The translations under genes and the position numbers were made by a program. The notes beneath the pieces are model-generated. The model did no database searches and had not been told where the DNA came from. It saw nothing but the letters and a program-made list of their open reading frames with translations. From a bacterium (lineage in GTDB: Bacteria; SAR324; XYD2-FULL-50-16): a stretch of DNA of 64,000 nucleotides. The DNA is taken from contig JAVVEA010000001.1 in assembly GCA_032250835.1 (NCBI GenBank), positions 542,765-606,764 of the forward strand. Direction: 5' to 3'. Shown in pieces: positions 5,829-64,000 of the stretch. Every line of letters starts with the position of its first letter. The first letter of the stretch is position 1.

Positions 5829-6104
5829 TTGAAGAAGCAGTCTTATGAAGAAATCGCTTTAAACCCAAAGTACTTAGCCCGTGATACTTCTGGAAAGGAA
5901 GATAAAAAGCTGAAGCTAATGAAGGCCATGGGAGCAAAGGCCAAGTTGTTTGACGACATTACCGAGGCGATCTTGCAAGACCAAGGCTTTGCTGTTGAGC
6001 CAGACAGTGAGCTATACAAGGTACTGCGGAAGAACTTAGCAGGATTGCAGCCCCGGCGAGATCAACCCGCTTCAGAAGCGTTTTTAACTGGCTATCATGT
6101 CTAG
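5829..6104 (+). pseudogene. Gene fragment, possibly the linker region of a second integrase
   Basis: ILQDQGFAVEPDSELYKVLRKNLA resembles linker segments of long phage integrases (recalled resemblance); no good start. Confidence 0.35.
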
Positions 6105-6237
6105 TTATGTGACTATGCTAGATAGGTTGGAAGATGCAGAAGCTTTTGATGGCTAGGGTTTCATTGGCCCTATCTAAGCTCACCTGAGCTATCACCCAAG
6201 TTTTGTTGCCCTGTACTTAACCGCTTCCTAAGGGGTC

Positions 6238-6531
6238 GTGATGATGCAGAAAATGCTGTTAGTGTTTATCTTTGCCCTTGTTTCCTTTAGTGAACTATTT
6301 GCAGGAAGCGCTTGGCCGATGGAGTTTCTTTCGGAGGCTGAATTTCGCCGGCTCAACGCGCAAAAATACTATTCACCGGTCAGATTGAGTAAGCAGGAAG
6401 AGCTAGCCAAAGCGCTCGAACTTGAAATCCTCGGTTTTGCTTATTTTATAGGGGACTATGGCGTTAACGATAGCTTCAGGAAAGTCACCAAGGGACACAA
6501 AACACTGCTCCCCTTAGGACCGCAACATTGA
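6238..6531 (+). CDS. Short secreted hypothetical protein, possibly a truncated Sel1-repeat protein
   Basis: Signal peptide; LGFAYFIGDYGVNDSFRK is Sel1-like. Confidence 0.4.
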   Translation: MMMQKMLLVFIFALVSFSELFAGSAWPMEFLSEAEFRRLNAQKYYSPVRLSKQEELAKALELEILGFAYFIGDYGVNDSFRKVTKGHKTLLPLGPQH

Positions 6532-57195: not shown

Positions 57196-60100
57196 TTAGA
57201 GGTTAAGTCCGCCGCGTTGTTTGCGCTCGCCGGTCTGATTAGCTAAGCTGCGTCCCATTTGGTCTAGGTCAAAGACCACTACCGGCCCGCCCTTGTCGCG
57301 GATGCTGCGTTGGATGTCCACCAACTCACCCAAGCGATCCACCAACCGGTCTAGCCGCTGGTTTTCGCCTTCTTTAGACCCGCCTTTGATTTCGACGGGA
57401 ATGCTCTTTCCGTTCGGCAGAGGTACGTGGGCTTCGGCCTGGAACCTACCTTCGGAGACCCAAGCGAGCTGCGGCCCGTAGCTAATACCGCCGTCGGCAT
57501 ATCCGCCAATCTGTAACCGGTCGCCCACCAACTGCGAAAGCCCCGCATAGTCCACCTGTTTGTATCCCGCCACTTCGCGCACCAAAGAAGGCAACACCCG
57601 CGCTAAGTCTTGGGCGATCACGCCCGCCCCGGCCCCAAAATGGCCCTTGGCCTGCCCCTGCCCGTTCCAATCCCAATAGGCTTGGCGTACGCCGGGCAAT
57701 AGCTCTTGGCCGTAGTGCACGTTTGACTTAAGCCGCTGGTCCGAAAGGCCGGACCAGTGGCTACTTCCAAGCCCACCTATGCCTCCGCCGCCGCCGGGTA
57801 AAGCTTCCATAACGGCATCATAAATGGCACGGGGCAGCTCCCTAATCATCTTCACAACTGCATTGTAAAAATTTGAGCTAATCTCCGTGATTGCGCGGGT
57901 GATATTGTCCCAAATGCCTTTTACAACAGATGAAGCCGCGCCCCAAATCGCCGAGCCTAGGTCCATGATGGCGTGCCAAGCACCTGAAATCAGGCCGCCT
58001 AAGTCCTTAAACAGGGTTTTGAGCATCCCGCCCAGGGCTCCAAACGAGTCGGTTAGTCCCGTCCAAATATCGCTCAGTATTTTAGCGACCCCTTCAAAGA
58101 CTGATTTTAAGGCGTTGATTCCGCCCTGAACGTTGGTCAAAATACCTGCAATCCATTCCAGGGAATCCAAGATCATCTGCAAGATGCCCTTGCTTTCGGG
58201 GCCCAGTGTGGGGGCTTCGACGGCATCGGCCAGACTGTTGGCCTGGGTGATGAGGTCGGGACCGCTCGAAAGCCCGTCCAGGTCGTTCTGGGTCACCTGT
58301 TGCACCGATTCCAAGCCCGCCACCACCGCCTGATAGATGTCGCGATACCCCTGGCTGCTGCGTAGTTGGGCTTGGGCGGCGTCTAAATATTGGGTGCTGT
58401 AGCCGGTCAGTTGCCCCACCCGGTCTTGCCGTTCCTTCGCCGAAATGCCCGATTCCTGGGCGGCGGCGAGCAATTCATTAAACCTTGCCGTCTTGGCGTC
58501 TAGGCTCTGCAACTCGGGGTTGTACTGAGCCCCGCTGATCTGCTCTAAGGTGCTTTTGAGGGTGTTGAGCACCCCTTGTAGCGTGGTGCGGCTCGCCTCG
58601 GTAGAATCTTTGATCTTCTTTAGGGTTTCAAACTGCTGCTTGGAAAGATCAATATAGCGGTCCCAATAGTCACTGGCCCCACGGTCGAGCCCTTCCCGCT
58701 CACTTTGCAGCCGCTTGAACTCGGCCCCCCAGTCTTGGGGGCCCCAGTCGGCTCGTTGTAAGTCAGTGACCCAGCCCCGGATGGATTTGGTCAGCTCCTT
58801 GAGCGCCGCCACCTGAGCTTCGGTCACCTGCCGCTCGCCGCCGCCAAAAATCTGGGCCAGGGCCCGCTGGAAGCCCTCGAAAAAGCCGTTGATCAGGCGG
58901 TCCAAAAATTCCGCCGTAAGTAAGGTACCCAGGGCCTCGGTGAACAGGTCCGCCAAACCGTGGATGCTGTCGCGCAGCAACGTGGGGAGGGACTTTAGCC
59001 AGTTGCCGATCTTCGAGCCCAAATCCCGCCAGGCCTTTAATAAATCGGTCACCATGTTCATGATCGCGTTGGCCAATGAAGGGATGGCCATGGCCAAGTT
59101 ATACATAGAAGAAGCTGACTTCAGCATCGCGCCGGTCGCATCCATCAGCGGCTTGCCGAATTCTTCTTTGCCGGATTCCTTATCTTTTTGGTTCTGCTGG
59201 TCGAACTGCTCCTTGGTCTGGCCGATCTCCTCCACCTTCTGGGCAAAAAACCGCTGCCCCATCTCCTCGCCCATCTTCCCGCCAATGTCCCGGGCGATTT
59301 GCTCATATTTCTGAAAAGCTTCCTGGATCGCCCGGTCGGCCCATTCGGCGCTGCCTCGTTTGATCGTTGAGTCATAAAGGCGCTGGGCCTCTTCACGGGC
59401 CATAATCTTTGCCGGATCTTCCGAAGCAGCCGCCACGCTTTGGGCTTGTTCGAAGCTGCCAGAGTTTCTCACGTCCAGTAGTTGCTGCTCCACCTGCAAC
59501 TGATCCAGCAGGTCCTGGTTCTTTTTCTGTTCGGTGGAACGAATTTCCTCACCTTGCGCGGCTTGGTCTTCTAAGTACTTTTTACGCAATTGCAGAAACT
59601 TGATCTCCCGCTGGATCGCCTGCTGGTGTTCGGGCTTGTCCACTAGTCCAAAGGCTTCGCCCATCTTAGTAAAAGCCCCACGTTGGGCTGATTCCAGTTT
59701 GACATACTCACTTCTCAGCTTCTTTATCTGTGATTTTACGCCCTCGTCATTCAAATCACCATATTTCCCATTCAGGGCGTTATCACTCAGTAAAGCCGTA
59801 TCAGCTTTACTTTGCTGGTCAGCAGAACTTTTCTTCATTCTTGTGAAAATTTCGATCCAGCCTCTTACCAATATAAACGTTGGGTTCATGGCGATTAAGA
59901 TTGTTTTGACGATCTTAAATATTTTGACCAAAACCTCGCCCAAATCCACTAAGACCAGTTTGTTTTCCACGATCCATTGAGTGGCCTCTTGAAACCCTTT
60001 TTTTAGGTCACCAGAAAACAGACCATATATCTCGTCGCTGACATCGCCGACCGCCGAAAGAAGCCCATCCAAAGCCCCCGAAAGGGTATCTCGTTCTGCC

Positions 60101-61224
60101 TCAGCAACTTGTTTGTTGATCCCCGCACCCTTGCGGTATGCCGCGTTCAAATTCTCTACCGCATCGGCCTGCCCCAACAATGGGCCATAAGCTGCGGCGG
60201 CTTCCTTGCCCAACAGCTTCTGAACCTGCGCCGCGTCCCAACCCGCTTTCTGCATCTCCTTGAGTGCCTCAACAAAGCCCTTTCCTTGGCCGTCCACCTT
60301 CAAGGCTTTAAAGGTTTCGGGTAATACTTTAAAGGCGGCATCAAGGCCCGTTCCCGCGTCCTTGATCTGAACCCCCTGGTCAACCAAGGAGACCAAAATA
60401 GCGCCGACTTGTTCCAGGTCGTGGCCCGAAGCTTGTGCGCTTTTCCCAACCTTTTGGAACGCCGCCGCCAGCTCTGGGACCGTCACGTTTGCTCGGTTGA
60501 TGCTATGGACGATCATATCGTTGATCCGTCCCATATCTTGCGGCAACAGTTCCATGCTTTTCTTGATTTTGCCCGAGTGTAACGCTGCCTGTTCTGGGGT
60601 TATCTGGGCAGCGGTGGCCAAGTCCATGGCACCGGGAAGGGCTGCTAGGGCTTGGGGTGTATCCAATTTAGCGTGTTGCAATTCAACAAACCCCTTAAAG
60701 GCTTGGGCTGGAGAGAATTCGGTCTTGAGGCCCATTTCTCGGGCACGCATCTCAGCATTCTTCATCTGATCCGGATCGGCCTTCTTTGCGGCTTGGAACC
60801 TTTTTAGTTCTTTTTCTAAATCGCCAGCATCTTGAACGGCTTTTTTACCCCTTTTCAAGAGATCCCCTACAGCCTCACCGCCCGCTACCGCCCCTTCAAT
60901 GAACGGCATGACAGAAGCGGCATAAATCTCGCGCCGCTGCTTCAACGTCCCACCGTTCCTACTCACGGATAGATAAGTAGTACTCCTATCCCGCTCCCCT
61001 TCGTCGCGGTCTATTGCATGCTTGGCCTTGATCGAGTTTTTGGTGAATCGGTCAAAATTTTGACCCGCCAGGTCCGTAGGACCCCTGTCTTTCAGTCTTG
61101 TGTTGAACTTCTCAACTGCCTTGTCGGTGGATTGAGCTTCCTTGCCCAGAGCTTTCAGCTTGACGGTCAACGCTTCGGCGTTACGCTGGGCTTGCGTGCT
61201 GTCTAGAGAAATCTTGAGGTTCAT
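57196..61224 (-). CDS. Phage tail tape measure protein (TP901 family) with S74-like chaperone domain near C-terminus
   Basis: AREMGLKTEFSPAQA..ALPGAMDLATAA TP901 core; SDQRLKSNV..GVIAQDL..VDY; YADGG..GP..EG..EA..PL; SD AAGGAAGG before ATG 61224. Confidence 0.92.
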   Translation of the reverse strand: MNLKISLDSTQAQRNAEALTVKLKALGKEAQSTDKAVEKFNTRLKDRGPTDLAGQNFDRFTKNSIKAKHAIDRDEGERDRSTTYLSVSRNGGTLKQRREIYAASVMPFIEGAVAGGEAVGDLLKRGKKAVQDAGDLEKELKRFQAAKKADPDQMKNAEMRAREMGLKTEFSPAQAFKGFVELQHAKLDTPQALAALPGAMDLATAAQITPEQAALHSGKIKKSMELLPQDMGRINDMIVHSINRANVTVPELAAAFQKVGKSAQASGHDLEQVGAILVSLVDQGVQIKDAGTGLDAAFKVLPETFKALKVDGQGKGFVEALKEMQKAGWDAAQVQKLLGKEAAAAYGPLLGQADAVENLNAAYRKGAGINKQVAEAERDTLSGALDGLLSAVGDVSDEIYGLFSGDLKKGFQEATQWIVENKLVLVDLGEVLVKIFKIVKTILIAMNPTFILVRGWIEIFTRMKKSSADQQSKADTALLSDNALNGKYGDLNDEGVKSQIKKLRSEYVKLESAQRGAFTKMGEAFGLVDKPEHQQAIQREIKFLQLRKKYLEDQAAQGEEIRSTEQKKNQDLLDQLQVEQQLLDVRNSGSFEQAQSVAAASEDPAKIMAREEAQRLYDSTIKRGSAEWADRAIQEAFQKYEQIARDIGGKMGEEMGQRFFAQKVEEIGQTKEQFDQQNQKDKESGKEEFGKPLMDATGAMLKSASSMYNLAMAIPSLANAIMNMVTDLLKAWRDLGSKIGNWLKSLPTLLRDSIHGLADLFTEALGTLLTAEFLDRLINGFFEGFQRALAQIFGGGERQVTEAQVAALKELTKSIRGWVTDLQRADWGPQDWGAEFKRLQSEREGLDRGASDYWDRYIDLSKQQFETLKKIKDSTEASRTTLQGVLNTLKSTLEQISGAQYNPELQSLDAKTARFNELLAAAQESGISAKERQDRVGQLTGYSTQYLDAAQAQLRSSQGYRDIYQAVVAGLESVQQVTQNDLDGLSSGPDLITQANSLADAVEAPTLGPESKGILQMILDSLEWIAGILTNVQGGINALKSVFEGVAKILSDIWTGLTDSFGALGGMLKTLFKDLGGLISGAWHAIMDLGSAIWGAASSVVKGIWDNITRAITEISSNFYNAVVKMIRELPRAIYDAVMEALPGGGGGIGGLGSSHWSGLSDQRLKSNVHYGQELLPGVRQAYWDWNGQGQAKGHFGAGAGVIAQDLARVLPSLVREVAGYKQVDYAGLSQLVGDRLQIGGYADGGISYGPQLAWVSEGRFQAEAHVPLPNGKSIPVEIKGGSKEGENQRLDRLVDRLGELVDIQRSIRDKGGPVVVFDLDQMGRSLANQTGERKQRGGLNL

Positions 61225-61426
61225 CTCACAATCCTTCCTTGTTGAGGCTGGGGATAAATGATGGGTTCCATCATCCAAACCAACCGAAGTTCAAATCCGC
61301 CCGATCCTTGGGCGTCTAACGGGATTAAAAACCCTAATTACGTAAAAAGCTCAATCCTTATCACCGAACCGCAACATATACCCCCGAACGGTCACAGGAA
61401 AAGGGGGTAAGGATTCCGCTAAAAGA
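61141..61426 (-). repeat. Leader + TMP 5' repeat, copy 1 (attached to the full TMP)
   Basis: Aligns with 62294-62544 and 63714-64000. Confidence 0.92.
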
Positions 61427-61568
61427 AGCGTGTCTTGATCACTTTGAGTCCCGTAGACAACTGTTGGCATTGTTATGGAGTGCCAATTGCCATTGGGAAT
61501 ATTTTGAGGTATTTCTAACTTTATATTTTAAAGGGGAATTCCCCCAGGACCCATCTCTAAAAAACCAA

Positions 61569-62243
61569 ATGAAATCTATCGTCCTCCTTTTTACCTTTCT
61601 GCTGGCCTTCTCCTGGCCCGTTTACGCCGAAATGAAGCCGGAGACCTTAAAAAAGATCAAGCAACTCTACTTAGAGCTTCAGGCCTTTAAAAACGATTCG
61701 CTTTTGACCCATGTCGGCTTGAGTCCCTATTGCATCTACGGTAAATGGTCTGATTCAGTCTCGGCGATCAACCGTGAGTTGGGCCAAGATCAGCGCATGA
61801 AATTAGCCGATGGGACATTTTTTTATCCTGTCATCTCATTGAGTTATTTAGGGAATGAGATATCGGACAACGCAGCTCATGGCAGACCACCAGACAACGC
61901 CGACACTCGGAAGGACGCACGTGAGTTTGAACAAGCCCTCGGCATCAAAACACCCCCGCCAAACCCTGGCCGCCAGTTATACCTAACAAAGGGGGATCGC
62001 TTGTGTTCTGCCGACAAGGAACTATTTATAGAGGCAACCACTTGGCTTGCCGATGGCGATTTTGAGGCCTTTAAACCCCTGTACCTCTCAGATCAGGTAT
62101 TTGCGACGAAAGCTAACGTTGAAGTCTACATTGTGGAAAGCGACATCCTCCTCCTAAGAGTCCGCCCCAAAGGCTCGCAGGCCACCTATTGGTGCTATGA
62201 AGATGTTATCCAAGACTGTTCCAGCCCACCGTCAGGCGAATAG
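61569..62243 (+). CDS. Secreted hypothetical protein (cassette gene 1)
   Basis: Signal peptide MKSIVLLFTFLLAFSWPVYA; C-terminal domain shared with 62677..63426. Confidence 0.8.
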   Translation: MKSIVLLFTFLLAFSWPVYAEMKPETLKKIKQLYLELQAFKNDSLLTHVGLSPYCIYGKWSDSVSAINRELGQDQRMKLADGTFFYPVISLSYLGNEISDNAAHGRPPDNADTRKDAREFEQALGIKTPPPNPGRQLYLTKGDRLCSADKELFIEATTWLADGDFEAFKPLYLSDQVFATKANVEVYIVESDILLLRVRPKGSQATYWCYEDVIQDCSSPPSGE

Positions 62244-62256
62244 CGACAAAAGCGCC

Positions 62257-62349
62257 TCAGGTCCGAAACGCCTTTTGAGGCACTCGAATTAATAACGCTT
62301 CGGCATTACGCTGGGCCTGGGTGCTGTCCAAAGAAATTTTTAGATTCAT
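62257..62349 (-). CDS. 30-aa mini-ORF / truncated TMP 5' end
   Basis: MNLKISLDSTQAQRNAEALLIRVPQKAFRT*; first 19 aa identical to TMP; same SD. Confidence 0.6.
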   Translation of the reverse strand: MNLKISLDSTQAQRNAEALLIRVPQKAFRT

Positions 62350-62544
62350 CGCGCAATCCTTCCTTGTTGAGGCTGGGGGAAGTTGATGGAATCCATCATC
62401 CAAACCAACCGATGTTCAATACCACCCAATCCCTGGGCGACCATTTAGACCAAAAGGCCCGTAATCCGCGAAAGTCTAACCCCTTCAAGCGAACCCCAAC
62501 ATACCCCCTGATGACATACAGAGACAGAGGGCAAGGATTCCGCT
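62294..62544 (-). repeat. Leader + TMP 5' repeat, copy 2 (most diverged)
   Basis: Shares CAATCCTTCCTTGTTGAGGCTGGGG, CCATCATCCAAACCAACCGA and AAGGATTCCGCT. Confidence 0.9.
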
Positions 62545-62676
62545 CCATAAAAACGAATCAACTCCCAAGCCGGAGCCAGTTGCAAACGAGGAAGATTTGA
62601 GTTATTTTTTCCGCAAATGAACTAAAGCCCAGAACCCGTCTCGGCACCCATATTCTAGCTAAAACAACTGAAAGCC

Positions 62677-63426
62677 ATGAAAACCCTCATTCTGCTCCTT
62701 TGCTCCCTGGGCCTTGCCTCCGCCACCTTGGCCGCCAAAAAACCCGATCCCCCCACCTGCCCCAAGGCCCTGGACCCGGCCAAGGTTAAAAAGTATCAAA
62801 TCATCAAGCAGGAGCGCTCTAGCTCGACAAGAATCGATGCCAACATCTACGCACCCCACGCCAAAACTATTGAGGAACGCGCCCAGACCGCCATGCAGGC
62901 GGCGCTGGAAATCCAAAAGGAAACTCAAGCGCGTTATGTTTGGGTGATAATGATTCGAAGCCCCGAACAACCCGAATCACCCTGGAGGGCCAATGCCAGC
63001 TTCAACCCCGAGGCACATAGAGACAAACATGTCGTCTGGCGGGTAGTGACTCAGGTCGCCAGCCGCCCCCGCTACAACGCCCAATTCACGACCTATTGCC
63101 AGCAGTGGGAACCCTCTAAACTCACCCCCCTCAAAAGCACCCAGGTCGACCACATCAAGCCCCCACCGCCAGAAATCCACCACACGAGTGGGCTCGGTCT
63201 CTGCACAGTCTCAAAGGAAAACCTGATGAAAGCTAACAAGCTTTTTGATGCACATAAGGAGGGAGAACTAATGCGTATGGTTGAGGAATATTCACTGGCC
63301 ACCTTAAAGGAGGACTTACCAGTCTATCTTGAGGATGAGACCAATGAATCGTTTATTGCGATCCGTCCAAAAAACGAATCCGTATATTTCTGGTGTTTTA
63401 CCTCCCCGTCACCTCTGAAGGATTGA
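62677..63426 (+). CDS. Secreted protein with DUF4875-like N-domain (cassette gene 2)
   Basis: Signal peptide; APHAKTIEERAQTAMQAALEIQKET resembles DUF4875 (recalled); C-domain shared with 61569..62243. Confidence 0.8.
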   Translation: MKTLILLLCSLGLASATLAAKKPDPPTCPKALDPAKVKKYQIIKQERSSSTRIDANIYAPHAKTIEERAQTAMQAALEIQKETQARYVWVIMIRSPEQPESPWRANASFNPEAHRDKHVVWRVVTQVASRPRYNAQFTTYCQQWEPSKLTPLKSTQVDHIKPPPPEIHHTSGLGLCTVSKENLMKANKLFDAHKEGELMRMVEEYSLATLKEDLPVYLEDETNESFIAIRPKNESVYFWCFTSPSPLKD

Positions 63427-63686
63427 CGCGCTTTTAAGCCAAAAGCGAGGCAGTTTTGGGGTACTTTCGAGGTAAATGCGCTGGTGCCCGGATTTTCGCC
63501 AAAATCCCCTGCCACCGCGCGAAAAATTAACAGGGTGCCATAGAAGTACTAAGACGCAAACCACCGGCTTCACATGGTCGATTCGCTTTAAAATTTTTCC
63601 CTATATTTCAAACATATAATAAAATACTTTTATTGAAGTACTATGAAAGTATTTATGCCCCACCAAAATAGCTCCACCGACATCAG

Positions 63687-63797
63687 CTAGCCCCCTTGGC
63701 TGCTCTTGGCCGCCTTGCCCAGAGCTTTCAGCTTGACGGTCAATGCTTCTGCATTGCGTTGGGCCTGCGTGCTGTCTAGCGAAATCTTTAGGTTCAT
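63687..63797 (-). CDS. 36-aa mini-ORF / truncated TMP 5' end
   Basis: MNLKISLDSTQAQRNAEALTVKLKALGKAAKSSQGG*; first 28 aa identical to TMP. Confidence 0.6.
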   Translation of the reverse strand: MNLKISLDSTQAQRNAEALTVKLKALGKAAKSSQGG

Positions 63798-64000
63798 CGC
63801 ACAATCCTTCCTTGTTGAGGCTGGGGAAAAATGATGGAATCCATCATCCAAACCAACCGAAGTTCAAATCCGCCCTATCCTTGGGCGTCTAACGGGATTA
63901 AAAGGCCCGCAATGCGTAAAAAGCTCAATCCTTATCACCGAATCGCAACATATACCCCCGAAAGGGCACAGGAACAGGGGGCAAGGATTCCGCTAAAAGA
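63714..64000 (-). repeat. Leader + TMP 5' repeat, copy 3 (reaches window edge)
   Basis: Near-collinear with 61141-61426. Confidence 0.92.

Follow-up and report, generated by a model that had tools for sequence, protein, structure and literature searches.

Truncated copies of a phage tape-measure gene start as probable relics of stacked antisense cassettes in a SAR324 bacterium

The stretch of DNA analyzed here (the window) comprises 64,000 nucleotides (nt) from the draft genome of a SAR324 bacterium (GCA_032250835.1; 3.66 Mb in 43 contigs) and corresponds to positions 542765-606764 of contig JAVVEA010000001.1, hereafter C11. Close to one end it contains the gene for the tape-measure protein (TMP) of a phage tail cluster, whose product matches PHROG tape-measure families (best E-value 1.2e-31) and carries a precomputed Pfam assignment to PF10145. 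Between this gene and the tail-chaperone genes lies a stack of at least four cassettes, whose cargo genes fall into two families (A and B) and run antisense to TMP, interspersed with truncated copies of the TMP start. Two of these copies, f2 and f3, are short open reading frames (ORFs) that had been singled out as copies 2 and 3 in an initial annotation, and the interval noted there, 62257-63797, runs from the stop codon of f2 to the ATG of f3. The principal features of the array within the window are the following:

57196..61224, minus strand: TMP gene, working copy, 1342 amino acids, an intact ORF with PHROG and PF10145 matches
61141..61224, minus strand: codons 1-28 of the working TMP start, with the ATG at 61224; codons 1-19 (61168-61224) constitute the A-type arm and codons 20-28 are the same as in f3
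61225..61440, minus strand: leader block up1, about 215 nt, with a short palindrome and a 25-nt ribosome-binding-site block, defined by alignments
61569..62243, plus strand: cargo gene A1, 224 amino acids, with a signal-peptide-like N-terminus and no known family
62257..62349, minus strand: f2, 30 amino acids, with the ATG at 62349; TMP codons 1-19 continued by 11 cassette-A tail codons, with the stop at 62257-62259
62350..62562, minus strand: leader block up2, B-type, defined by alignments
62677..63426, plus strand: cargo gene B1, 249 amino acids, with a signal-peptide-like N-terminus, a variable C-terminal domain and a partial match to DUF4875
63687..63797, minus strand: f3, 36 amino acids, with the ATG at 63797; TMP codons 1-28 continued by 8 cassette-B tail codons, with the stop after them
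63798..64000, minus strand: leader block up3, A-type, reaching the window end, where an assembly gap of N bases starts

Comparison of the mini-ORFs with the TMP start uncovers a divergence that is confined to silent sites. Over codons 1-19, which in the TMP-f2 comparison offer 12.2 silent and 44.8 replacement sites, f2 departs from TMP by nine base differences in eight codons (2, 3, 4, 7, 10, 11, 15 and 19), all nine silent and none a replacement. TMP and f3 show eight differences in eight codons (3, 6, 11, 13, 14, 15, 16 and 18), again all silent, with none of the 27 bases of codons 20-28 differing, and f2 is separated from f3 by 11 silent and no replacement changes. This recount upholds the initial annotation, which had counted 8 codons with synonymous changes among the first 19 of f2 and 8 among the first 28 of f3; its example codon pairs and the lengths that it gave, 30 and 36 residues, are likewise correct. 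Its further statement that both copies keep the Shine-Dalgarno sequence and the ATG is borne out by a 25-nt block with the ribosome-binding site, which is identical in four copies (TMP, f2, f3 and the copy on contig C21) and absent elsewhere in the 3.66-Mb genome. As a chance control, 8 or 9 random substitutions were placed into the 18 codons following the ATG, in 100,000 trials each and with transition biases of 1, 2 and 5. An all-silent outcome was never obtained at a bias of 1 or 2, and at a bias of 5 it arose in 3 of the 100,000 trials with 8 changes and in none with 9. The silent-only divergence of f2 and f3 from TMP is thus real and far above chance.

The genome as a whole holds six copies of the TMP start, of which the working copy, f2 and f3 lie in the window and f4, f5 and fC21 outside it; the five truncated copies are referred to as stumps below. 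Their order on C11 is G/GT - f5 - B2 - f4 - A2 - f3 - B1 - f2 - A1 - TMP, where G/GT denotes the tail-assembly chaperone genes. In full, and read outward from TMP, it is TMP - up1 - A1 - f2 - up2 - B1 - f3 - up3 - [N gap] - A2 - f4 - up4 - B2 - f5 - AT-rich spacer - 136-residue ORF - Phage_tube_2 gene. Two stray contigs hold further variants, namely C21 (the end of A3, stump fC21, a leader and B3) and C37 (B4). On the TMP strand each cassette consists of a tail, one antisense cargo gene, a leader of about 215 nt, and a ribosome-binding site followed by the TMP start, which runs from the ATG to codon 19 (A) or codon 28 (B). The whole leader block is kept in front of TMP, f2, f3 and fC21, while f4 has it minus a 45-nt internal deletion and f5 shares merely the last 20 nt or so before the ATG with the other copies. 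The leader of TMP, up1, is 92% identical to up3 and 75% to up2, and its palindrome and ribosome-binding-site motifs are confined to the array within this genome. Tail-chaperone and TMP genes are normally adjacent, and the array is placed between the two. The chaperone genes were named by position and frame relation: a 136-residue ORF follows the Phage_tube_2 tail tube gene (L007 6614-7398, minus strand), and from 49 nt before its stop the -1 frame is open for 140 codons, neither part having a family match in Pfam, PHROG or NCBIfam.

The TMP homology of the stumps ends at one of two fixed junctions. In f2, f4 and fC21 it stops after codon 19, and these three copies share one common tail; in f3 and f5 it stops after codon 28 and is followed by another common tail (79% identity between f3 and f5 over 369 nt, including spacer). 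The 11 extra codons of f2 coincide with a hairpin of the terminator type in the TMP sense, so that the ends of these ORFs are by-products of cassette DNA. The state of the stumps varies: two of the five are clean (f2 and f3), one has a single replacement (L19F in fC21) and two are broken. Of the latter, f4 has a stop at codon 4, and its 45-nt deletion takes out the ribosome-binding-site block; f5 combines the replacements K4Q, S9R, V21L and L23M with a frameshift. Start signals and an open frame, which would be expected in every copy of a small protein gene, are therefore lacking in two of five. The stumps nearest to TMP (f2 and f3) are the clean ones, and the most decayed, f5, adjoins G/GT. 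This gradient is as expected if cassettes join at the TMP end and leave older starts behind, though with four ordered stumps it is suggestive only.

Traces of recombination were detected within the leader and gene-start repeats. In the distal leader f2 groups with f4 (62/82 and 41/45 identical positions) and TMP with f3 (77/95 and 37/45), but over codons 1-19 f2 groups with fC21 (54/57, with a 70-nt identical run) and TMP with f4 (51/57, with a 35-nt identical run). Furthermore, codons 20-28 are identical between TMP and f3, yet 8 of the 19 third positions just before them differ, the break falling at the A-type junction. Such conflicting groupings of adjacent segments imply recombination and mosaic repeats. 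Silent divergence among the repeated starts amounts to 0.55-0.89 in 14 of 15 pairs (the remaining pair, f2-fC21, stands at 0.17), and to 0.64-0.74 between stumps and TMP, as against 0.13-0.28 for the A cargo genes and 0.33-0.47 for the N-terminal and central parts of the B cargo genes. As the starts exceed the cargo in silent divergence, the two did not co-diverge in place. Selection on the peptides in place would predict a cargo-like silent divergence and decay as junk would predict many replacements, and neither is seen. Hence, the repeats appear to carry older alleles of the TMP start, which would have diverged under selection as working starts and later been united by recombination.

The cassettes are further marked by their terminators and base composition. 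On the TMP-sense strand, three copies of the A tail encode a hairpin with a trailing U-run, with free energies of -19.2, -19.2 and -20.6 kcal/mol and z-scores of -2.2, -3.2 and -4.4 (-19.2 kcal/mol and -2.2 for the tail of f2). On the cargo strand the fold is less stable, and the clear terminators face the TMP direction and not the cargo direction. A generic scan also detected one of the three hairpins. An A-tail terminator should stop transcripts arriving from upstream, in which case TMP would need the leader borne by the cassette. The G+C fraction of the array is 0.493, lower than that of TMP (0.548) and of the downstream tail genes (0.592), in keeping with the deviating base composition of morons (see below), and falls to 0.43 in the 3' spacer of B1. 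Promoter-like sites, predicted by pattern match, precede both cargo genes of the window:

61487..61515, plus strand: TTGCCA, 17 nt, TATTTC, located 53 nt before A1
62580..62608, plus strand: TTGCAA, 17 nt, TATTTT, located 68 nt before B1

The underlying pattern (TTGCMA, 17 nt, TAYTTY) occurs before three of the five cargo starts examined (A1, B1 and B2, in each case 53-68 nt upstream), and the site of B2 was also flagged by the generic scan; it was not found before A2, whose upstream region abuts the N gap, or before B3. The leader had no match in Rfam at an E-value of 1 or better, and neither its hairpin nor the B tail folds better than shuffled sequences (z -1.1 to +1.1).

Based on these observations we propose, with a probability of roughly 0.6, that f2 and f3 are displaced former working 5' ends of the TMP gene, left behind by a recombination-driven stacking of cassettes. 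The leader and gene-start repeat, about 270-300 nt long, would act as a portable homology arm, and recombination from arm to arm, whether inside one genome or involving related phages, would insert, remove and reshuffle cassettes much as a circle integrates in the Campbell model. The head of any related TMP gene could recombine with an arm carried on such a circle or on the genome of a related phage; in the outcome the old start would be cut at the fixed junction of the cassette, to be followed by the cargo and then by a new start joined to the TMP body. Each new cassette would in this way bring TMP a fresh start, and probably a fresh leader and promoter, and the previous start would remain as a stump fused to cassette DNA. 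The added cassette would also halt upstream transcription and shield its cargo from antisense read-through. As the arm lying beside the TMP body must encode a working N-terminus, the arms would diverge at silent sites only, without any function of the stumps being required, and stumps that have long been internal would decay in the way that f4 and f5 have done. The lack of the leader block at f5 fits a first insertion into a phage devoid of such a block.

Several observations weigh against this proposal. No excised circles are in evidence, and the mosaic arms reveal recombination only indirectly. A single cargo ORF is present in each cassette, which has no match to a recombinase family. A generic sigma-70 scan placed no promoter in the leader block and gave two promoter-like sites over 6.1 kb, where 5.1 are expected by chance, which is no enrichment; RNAalifold found compensatory changes in none of the 45 pairs of the leader. 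With their start codon, open frame and ribosome-binding site all retained, and with a terminator at the end of the A-type ones, the stumps f2, f3 and fC21 look like small genes. The unit of A gene, stump, leader and B gene aligns with the second such unit as a whole (80% over 1315 nt), as a plain tandem duplication would produce; the codon-19 junction must then be old, and the clean state of f2 would call for later patches of recombination. The assembly directly beyond the window is interrupted by N gaps of 129 bases (C11 606765-606893) and 8 bases (607296-607303), and the 400-nt sequence separating these gaps matches the 5' part of A1 (window 61557-61956) at 100% identity, making copy number and order beyond base 64000 uncertain. 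No cassette-free, single-cassette or otherwise related locus was recovered from any collection searched, so that insertion order and mobility are deduced from a single genome.

The searches for relatives were directed at several parts of the array. The back-translated TMP start had no match in viral or genome contigs (18 codons) or in metagenome contigs (13 codons), and the invariant 22-mer of the ribosome-binding-site block had none in metagenome or viral contigs. TMP residues 1-450 gave 92 pattern matches in genome contigs and six in viral contigs, none of which was confirmed, and had no match at an E-value of 1e-10 or better in 87 other genomes of the class. Among 5.8 billion proteins the relatives of residues 1-300 were at most 34% identical, and among 1.84 billion representatives residues 1-150 retrieved TMP itself and one match at an E-value of 4.8e-5. 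Intact TMP alleles with the codons of f2 or f3, for which the initial annotation had recommended a search, were found in none of these collections. The one public trace of the array is a soil metagenome run, which yielded 26 short low-depth contigs related to the array stretch, 14 of them less than 90% identical. One of 496 nt is colinear with window positions 61104-61601 past both junctions and has 40 differences, and hence at least one further diverged start of the full-length type exists in nature; together the soil contigs point to a pool of diverged alleles. In two further sequencing runs (X2 and X3) almost nothing aligned to the array, and no RNA run was among the runs recovered.

Among the alternatives, a plain tandem duplication fares best, and we regard it as unlikely. 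The pair of A and B genes and the TMP start would have been doubled by unequal crossing-over in this genome, with gene conversion keeping the stumps TMP-like, and neither import nor mobility of cassettes would be needed. The two A-B pairs do align as a single 2.57-kb period with junctions common to both, and identical patches exist within the genome (35 nt between TMP and f4, codons 20-28 between TMP and f3, and 70 nt between f2 and fC21). However, gene conversion would wipe out silent differences, whereas those between stumps and TMP exceed those between cargo genes; moreover, the 11 silent and no replacement changes separating f2 from f3, neither of which is a working start, could not result from divergence in place after truncation.

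The initial annotation had offered two readings of its own, either selected short peptides or scars of different functional TMP alleles. The second fits the junctions, the decay and the mosaic arms, and is the one that we develop above. The first would make the mini-ORFs real small genes. Selection would then act on the peptides of 30-36 residues, or on the translation of these, and the peptides could serve, for instance, as leader peptides or to mimic the N-terminus of TMP or act as its decoys. The lack of any replacement beside 8-11 silent changes in the 19 codons shared by f2 and f3, the intact ribosome-binding-site block of f2, f3 and fC21, and the compact unit formed by an A-type stump and a terminator on the same strand are in line with such genes. 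Against them stand the stop codon and lost ribosome-binding site of f4 and the frameshift of f5, and the residues past the junction, which simply come from cassette tails read in reverse and vary from copy to copy (..FRT, ..FQR). Selection in place also does not predict a silent divergence of the arms greater than that of the flanking genes. Selected peptides are thus unnecessary to account for the locus and in our estimate quite improbable.

We give still less credence to an artefact, in which the assembler would have strung in tandem the variants of one locus from several strains or prophages of a mixed sample. A soil metagenome as the sole public run containing related words could speak for it, as could the N gaps of 129 and 8 bases, the 400-nt exact duplicate, the stray contigs C21 and C37, and a 79-nt stretch that is duplicated on both sides of the 8-base gap and resembles unmerged scaffold ends. 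However, the series TMP-up1-A1-f2-up2-B1-f3-up3 is free of gaps and the longest exact run between two of its copies is 36 nt, too short for the merging of paths at usual assembly word sizes, so that we consider the tandem arrangement within the window sound. In addition, the copies are 75-92% identical and hence are not strain-level variants, and the stump junctions, which join TMP codon 19 or 28 to cassette tails, exist whatever the order of the units. Three other ideas were dropped: a diversity-generating retroelement, on the pattern of change alone (changes of all base types, at third codon positions); selection for silent divergence as a protection against repeat deletion, which leaves unexplained why non-working stumps lack replacements; and a tRNA-like or attachment-site role of the leader, which had no support.

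The displaced-start proposal has partial precedents in three known systems, drawn here from sections of the published accounts. In those of PMC3594210, a moron is defined, after Juhala et al. 2000, as extra DNA between two genes that are adjacent in related phages, and gene 15 of HK97 is presented as the first described moron, located between the tail chaperone and TMP genes and encoding an envelope protein that blocks the entry of other phages. Further hallmarks of a moron are a promoter and a terminator of its own, a base composition that deviates from that of the genes around it, and expression from the repressed prophage. The array resembles gene 15, an independently transcribed extra gene with an envelope product, in its site and also has a G+C content lower than that of its neighbors. 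It differs in comprising at least four stacked cassettes antisense to the tail operon, each with a spare leader and 19-28 TMP codons and each leaving a stump; a duplication of the TMP start is not reported for HK97 in the sections of PMC3594210 used here. The PeSL cassettes of T4-type phages, as portrayed in sections of PMC2839356, are ORFans flanked by direct repeats of a block of promoter, ribosome-binding site and start, recombination between which deletes, inserts and shuffles them; the crossover points fall between the -10 element, the ribosome-binding site and the start codon, and mini-circles were demonstrated by inverse PCR. Here too direct repeats of one regulatory and start block flank each cassette, the leader and gene-start block being repeated before every cargo gene. 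In contrast to PeSL, the repeat is longer and extends into the coding region of an essential structural gene, taking in its start, so that each event has to rebuild this gene. The setting is a siphovirus-type tail cluster (TP901-type TMP, Phage_tube_2 tail tube) and not a T4-type genome, and circles are known only for PeSL. The T4-type early promoter and stem-loop of PeSL have no counterpart in the block, which shows no detectable sigma-70-like promoter and no supported conserved stem-loop.

The third precedent is the E. coli icd gene, into which both the element e14 and phage 21 insert. According to the portion of PMC13626634 used here, e14 supplies a replacement gene end, the displaced end stays as the fragment pseudogene icdC, and most differences between the two ends are silent or conservative. 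The likeness lies in an inserted element with a replacement end for the interrupted gene, a displaced end left behind and mostly silent differences. In the case of e14, the 3' end of a host gene is replaced by a single insertion with a site-specific recombinase, whereas the present case concerns the 5' end of a phage gene and stacked insertions; with no recombinase family match, the cassettes do not qualify as recombinase-bearing integrating elements of the e14/icd type. In none of the three systems is stacking found together with antisense cargo and a spare 5' end for an essential phage gene, and a keyword search of open-access text, excluding supplements, found no description of duplicated TMP starts flanking morons.

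These comparisons raise a wider possibility, to which we would assign somewhat less than even odds: that the array consists of self-stacking moron cassettes free of a recombinase, whose arm is a replacement TMP start (leader and first 19-28 codons) and which enter and leave by homologous recombination without inactivating TMP, the stumps being their footprints. This may even be a general way by which phages gather envelope-protein genes at the chaperone/TMP junction. Morons are known at this junction, and how their arrival spares the tail operon is poorly understood. The present locus shows cassettes with their own terminator, a predicted cargo promoter and a spare start for the essential gene that they interrupt, and its displaced starts range from fresh to decayed. 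Should the proposal be true, the arm mechanism would explain the pile-up of diverged exported-protein genes at one spot and the seemingly selected look of the relics, and would indicate where such cassettes should be sought. It also advises caution in the discovery of small ORFs, since silent-only divergence of a mini-ORF can derive from its parent gene and does not imply a functional peptide.

The cargo genes are under purifying selection, with ratios of replacement to silent substitution rates (dN/dS) of 0.19-0.57 among the B genes. The signal-peptide-like character of A1 and B1 was judged by eye from their hydrophobic N-termini. B1 is 70, 64 and 59% identical to its paralogs B2, B3 and B4 and matches Pfam PF16175 (DUF4875) partially over residues 36-95 (E-value 1.3e-8); neither A1 nor B1 matched any family in PHROGs, PADLOC or NCBIfam. 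Searches for relatives returned this genome's four copies for B1 and A1 itself for A1, and four weak matches to B1 (E-values 2e-4 to 6e-4) in 60 genomes of relatives were limited to the DUF4875-like part. The C-terminal 90 or so residues of A1 and B1 are related to each other (30% identity, E-value 2e-7), and this common domain, which has two conserved cysteines and a VY...RPK...WC pattern, had no match in any library tried. The C-terminal domain is also the most variable part of the four B copies, with a replacement divergence of 0.22-0.53 as against 0.03-0.10 in the center, and B4 (L014, contig C37) is 98% identical to B1 (window 62983-63426) over the first 202 nt and then continues into a quite different C-terminal domain. 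Such a pattern in the aligned copies suggests domain swapping or the diversification of a recognition domain. An AlphaFold model of B1 built with four sequences reached a mean pLDDT of 62.5, and Foldseek found nothing for it in the PDB at an E-value of 0.001 or better. In the ESM Atlas the best feature score for the cargo was 0.88, with structural TM scores of at most 0.39; these matches serve as leads only and include a weak row for a superinfection-immunity cluster at a TM score of 0.30. A role of the superinfection-exclusion type, suggested by the position of the genes, is only a guess.

Other repeated sequences were noted in and around the array. On contig C21, about 24 nt after B3, there follows a B1-like upstream region with a gene start (94.6% identical to B1; L004 1-135), with neither a stump nor an A gene in between, so that some copy or strain has a B-B arrangement. 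The array also includes four copies of an AT-rich element, about 60 nt long, that contains a short palindrome of the ATACTTC..GAAGTAT type; two of them are found between G/GT and f5, and one each in the 3' spacers of B1 and B2. The window contains one:

63585..63665, minus strand: palindrome-bearing AT-rich element, located in the B1 3' spacer

The copies outside the window lie at L007 ~5990-6010, 6230-6300 and 6430-6500. Its 9-nt core word occurs 33 times in the genome, four of them in the array, and one copy contains a promoter-like site according to the generic scan; the element may be an operator or promoter module. At the far end of the window, positions 1320-1800 contain nested direct repeats (1326/1508 and 1561/1701) and a 56-nt inverted repeat (1320-1375 / 1745-1800) that is 79% complementary.

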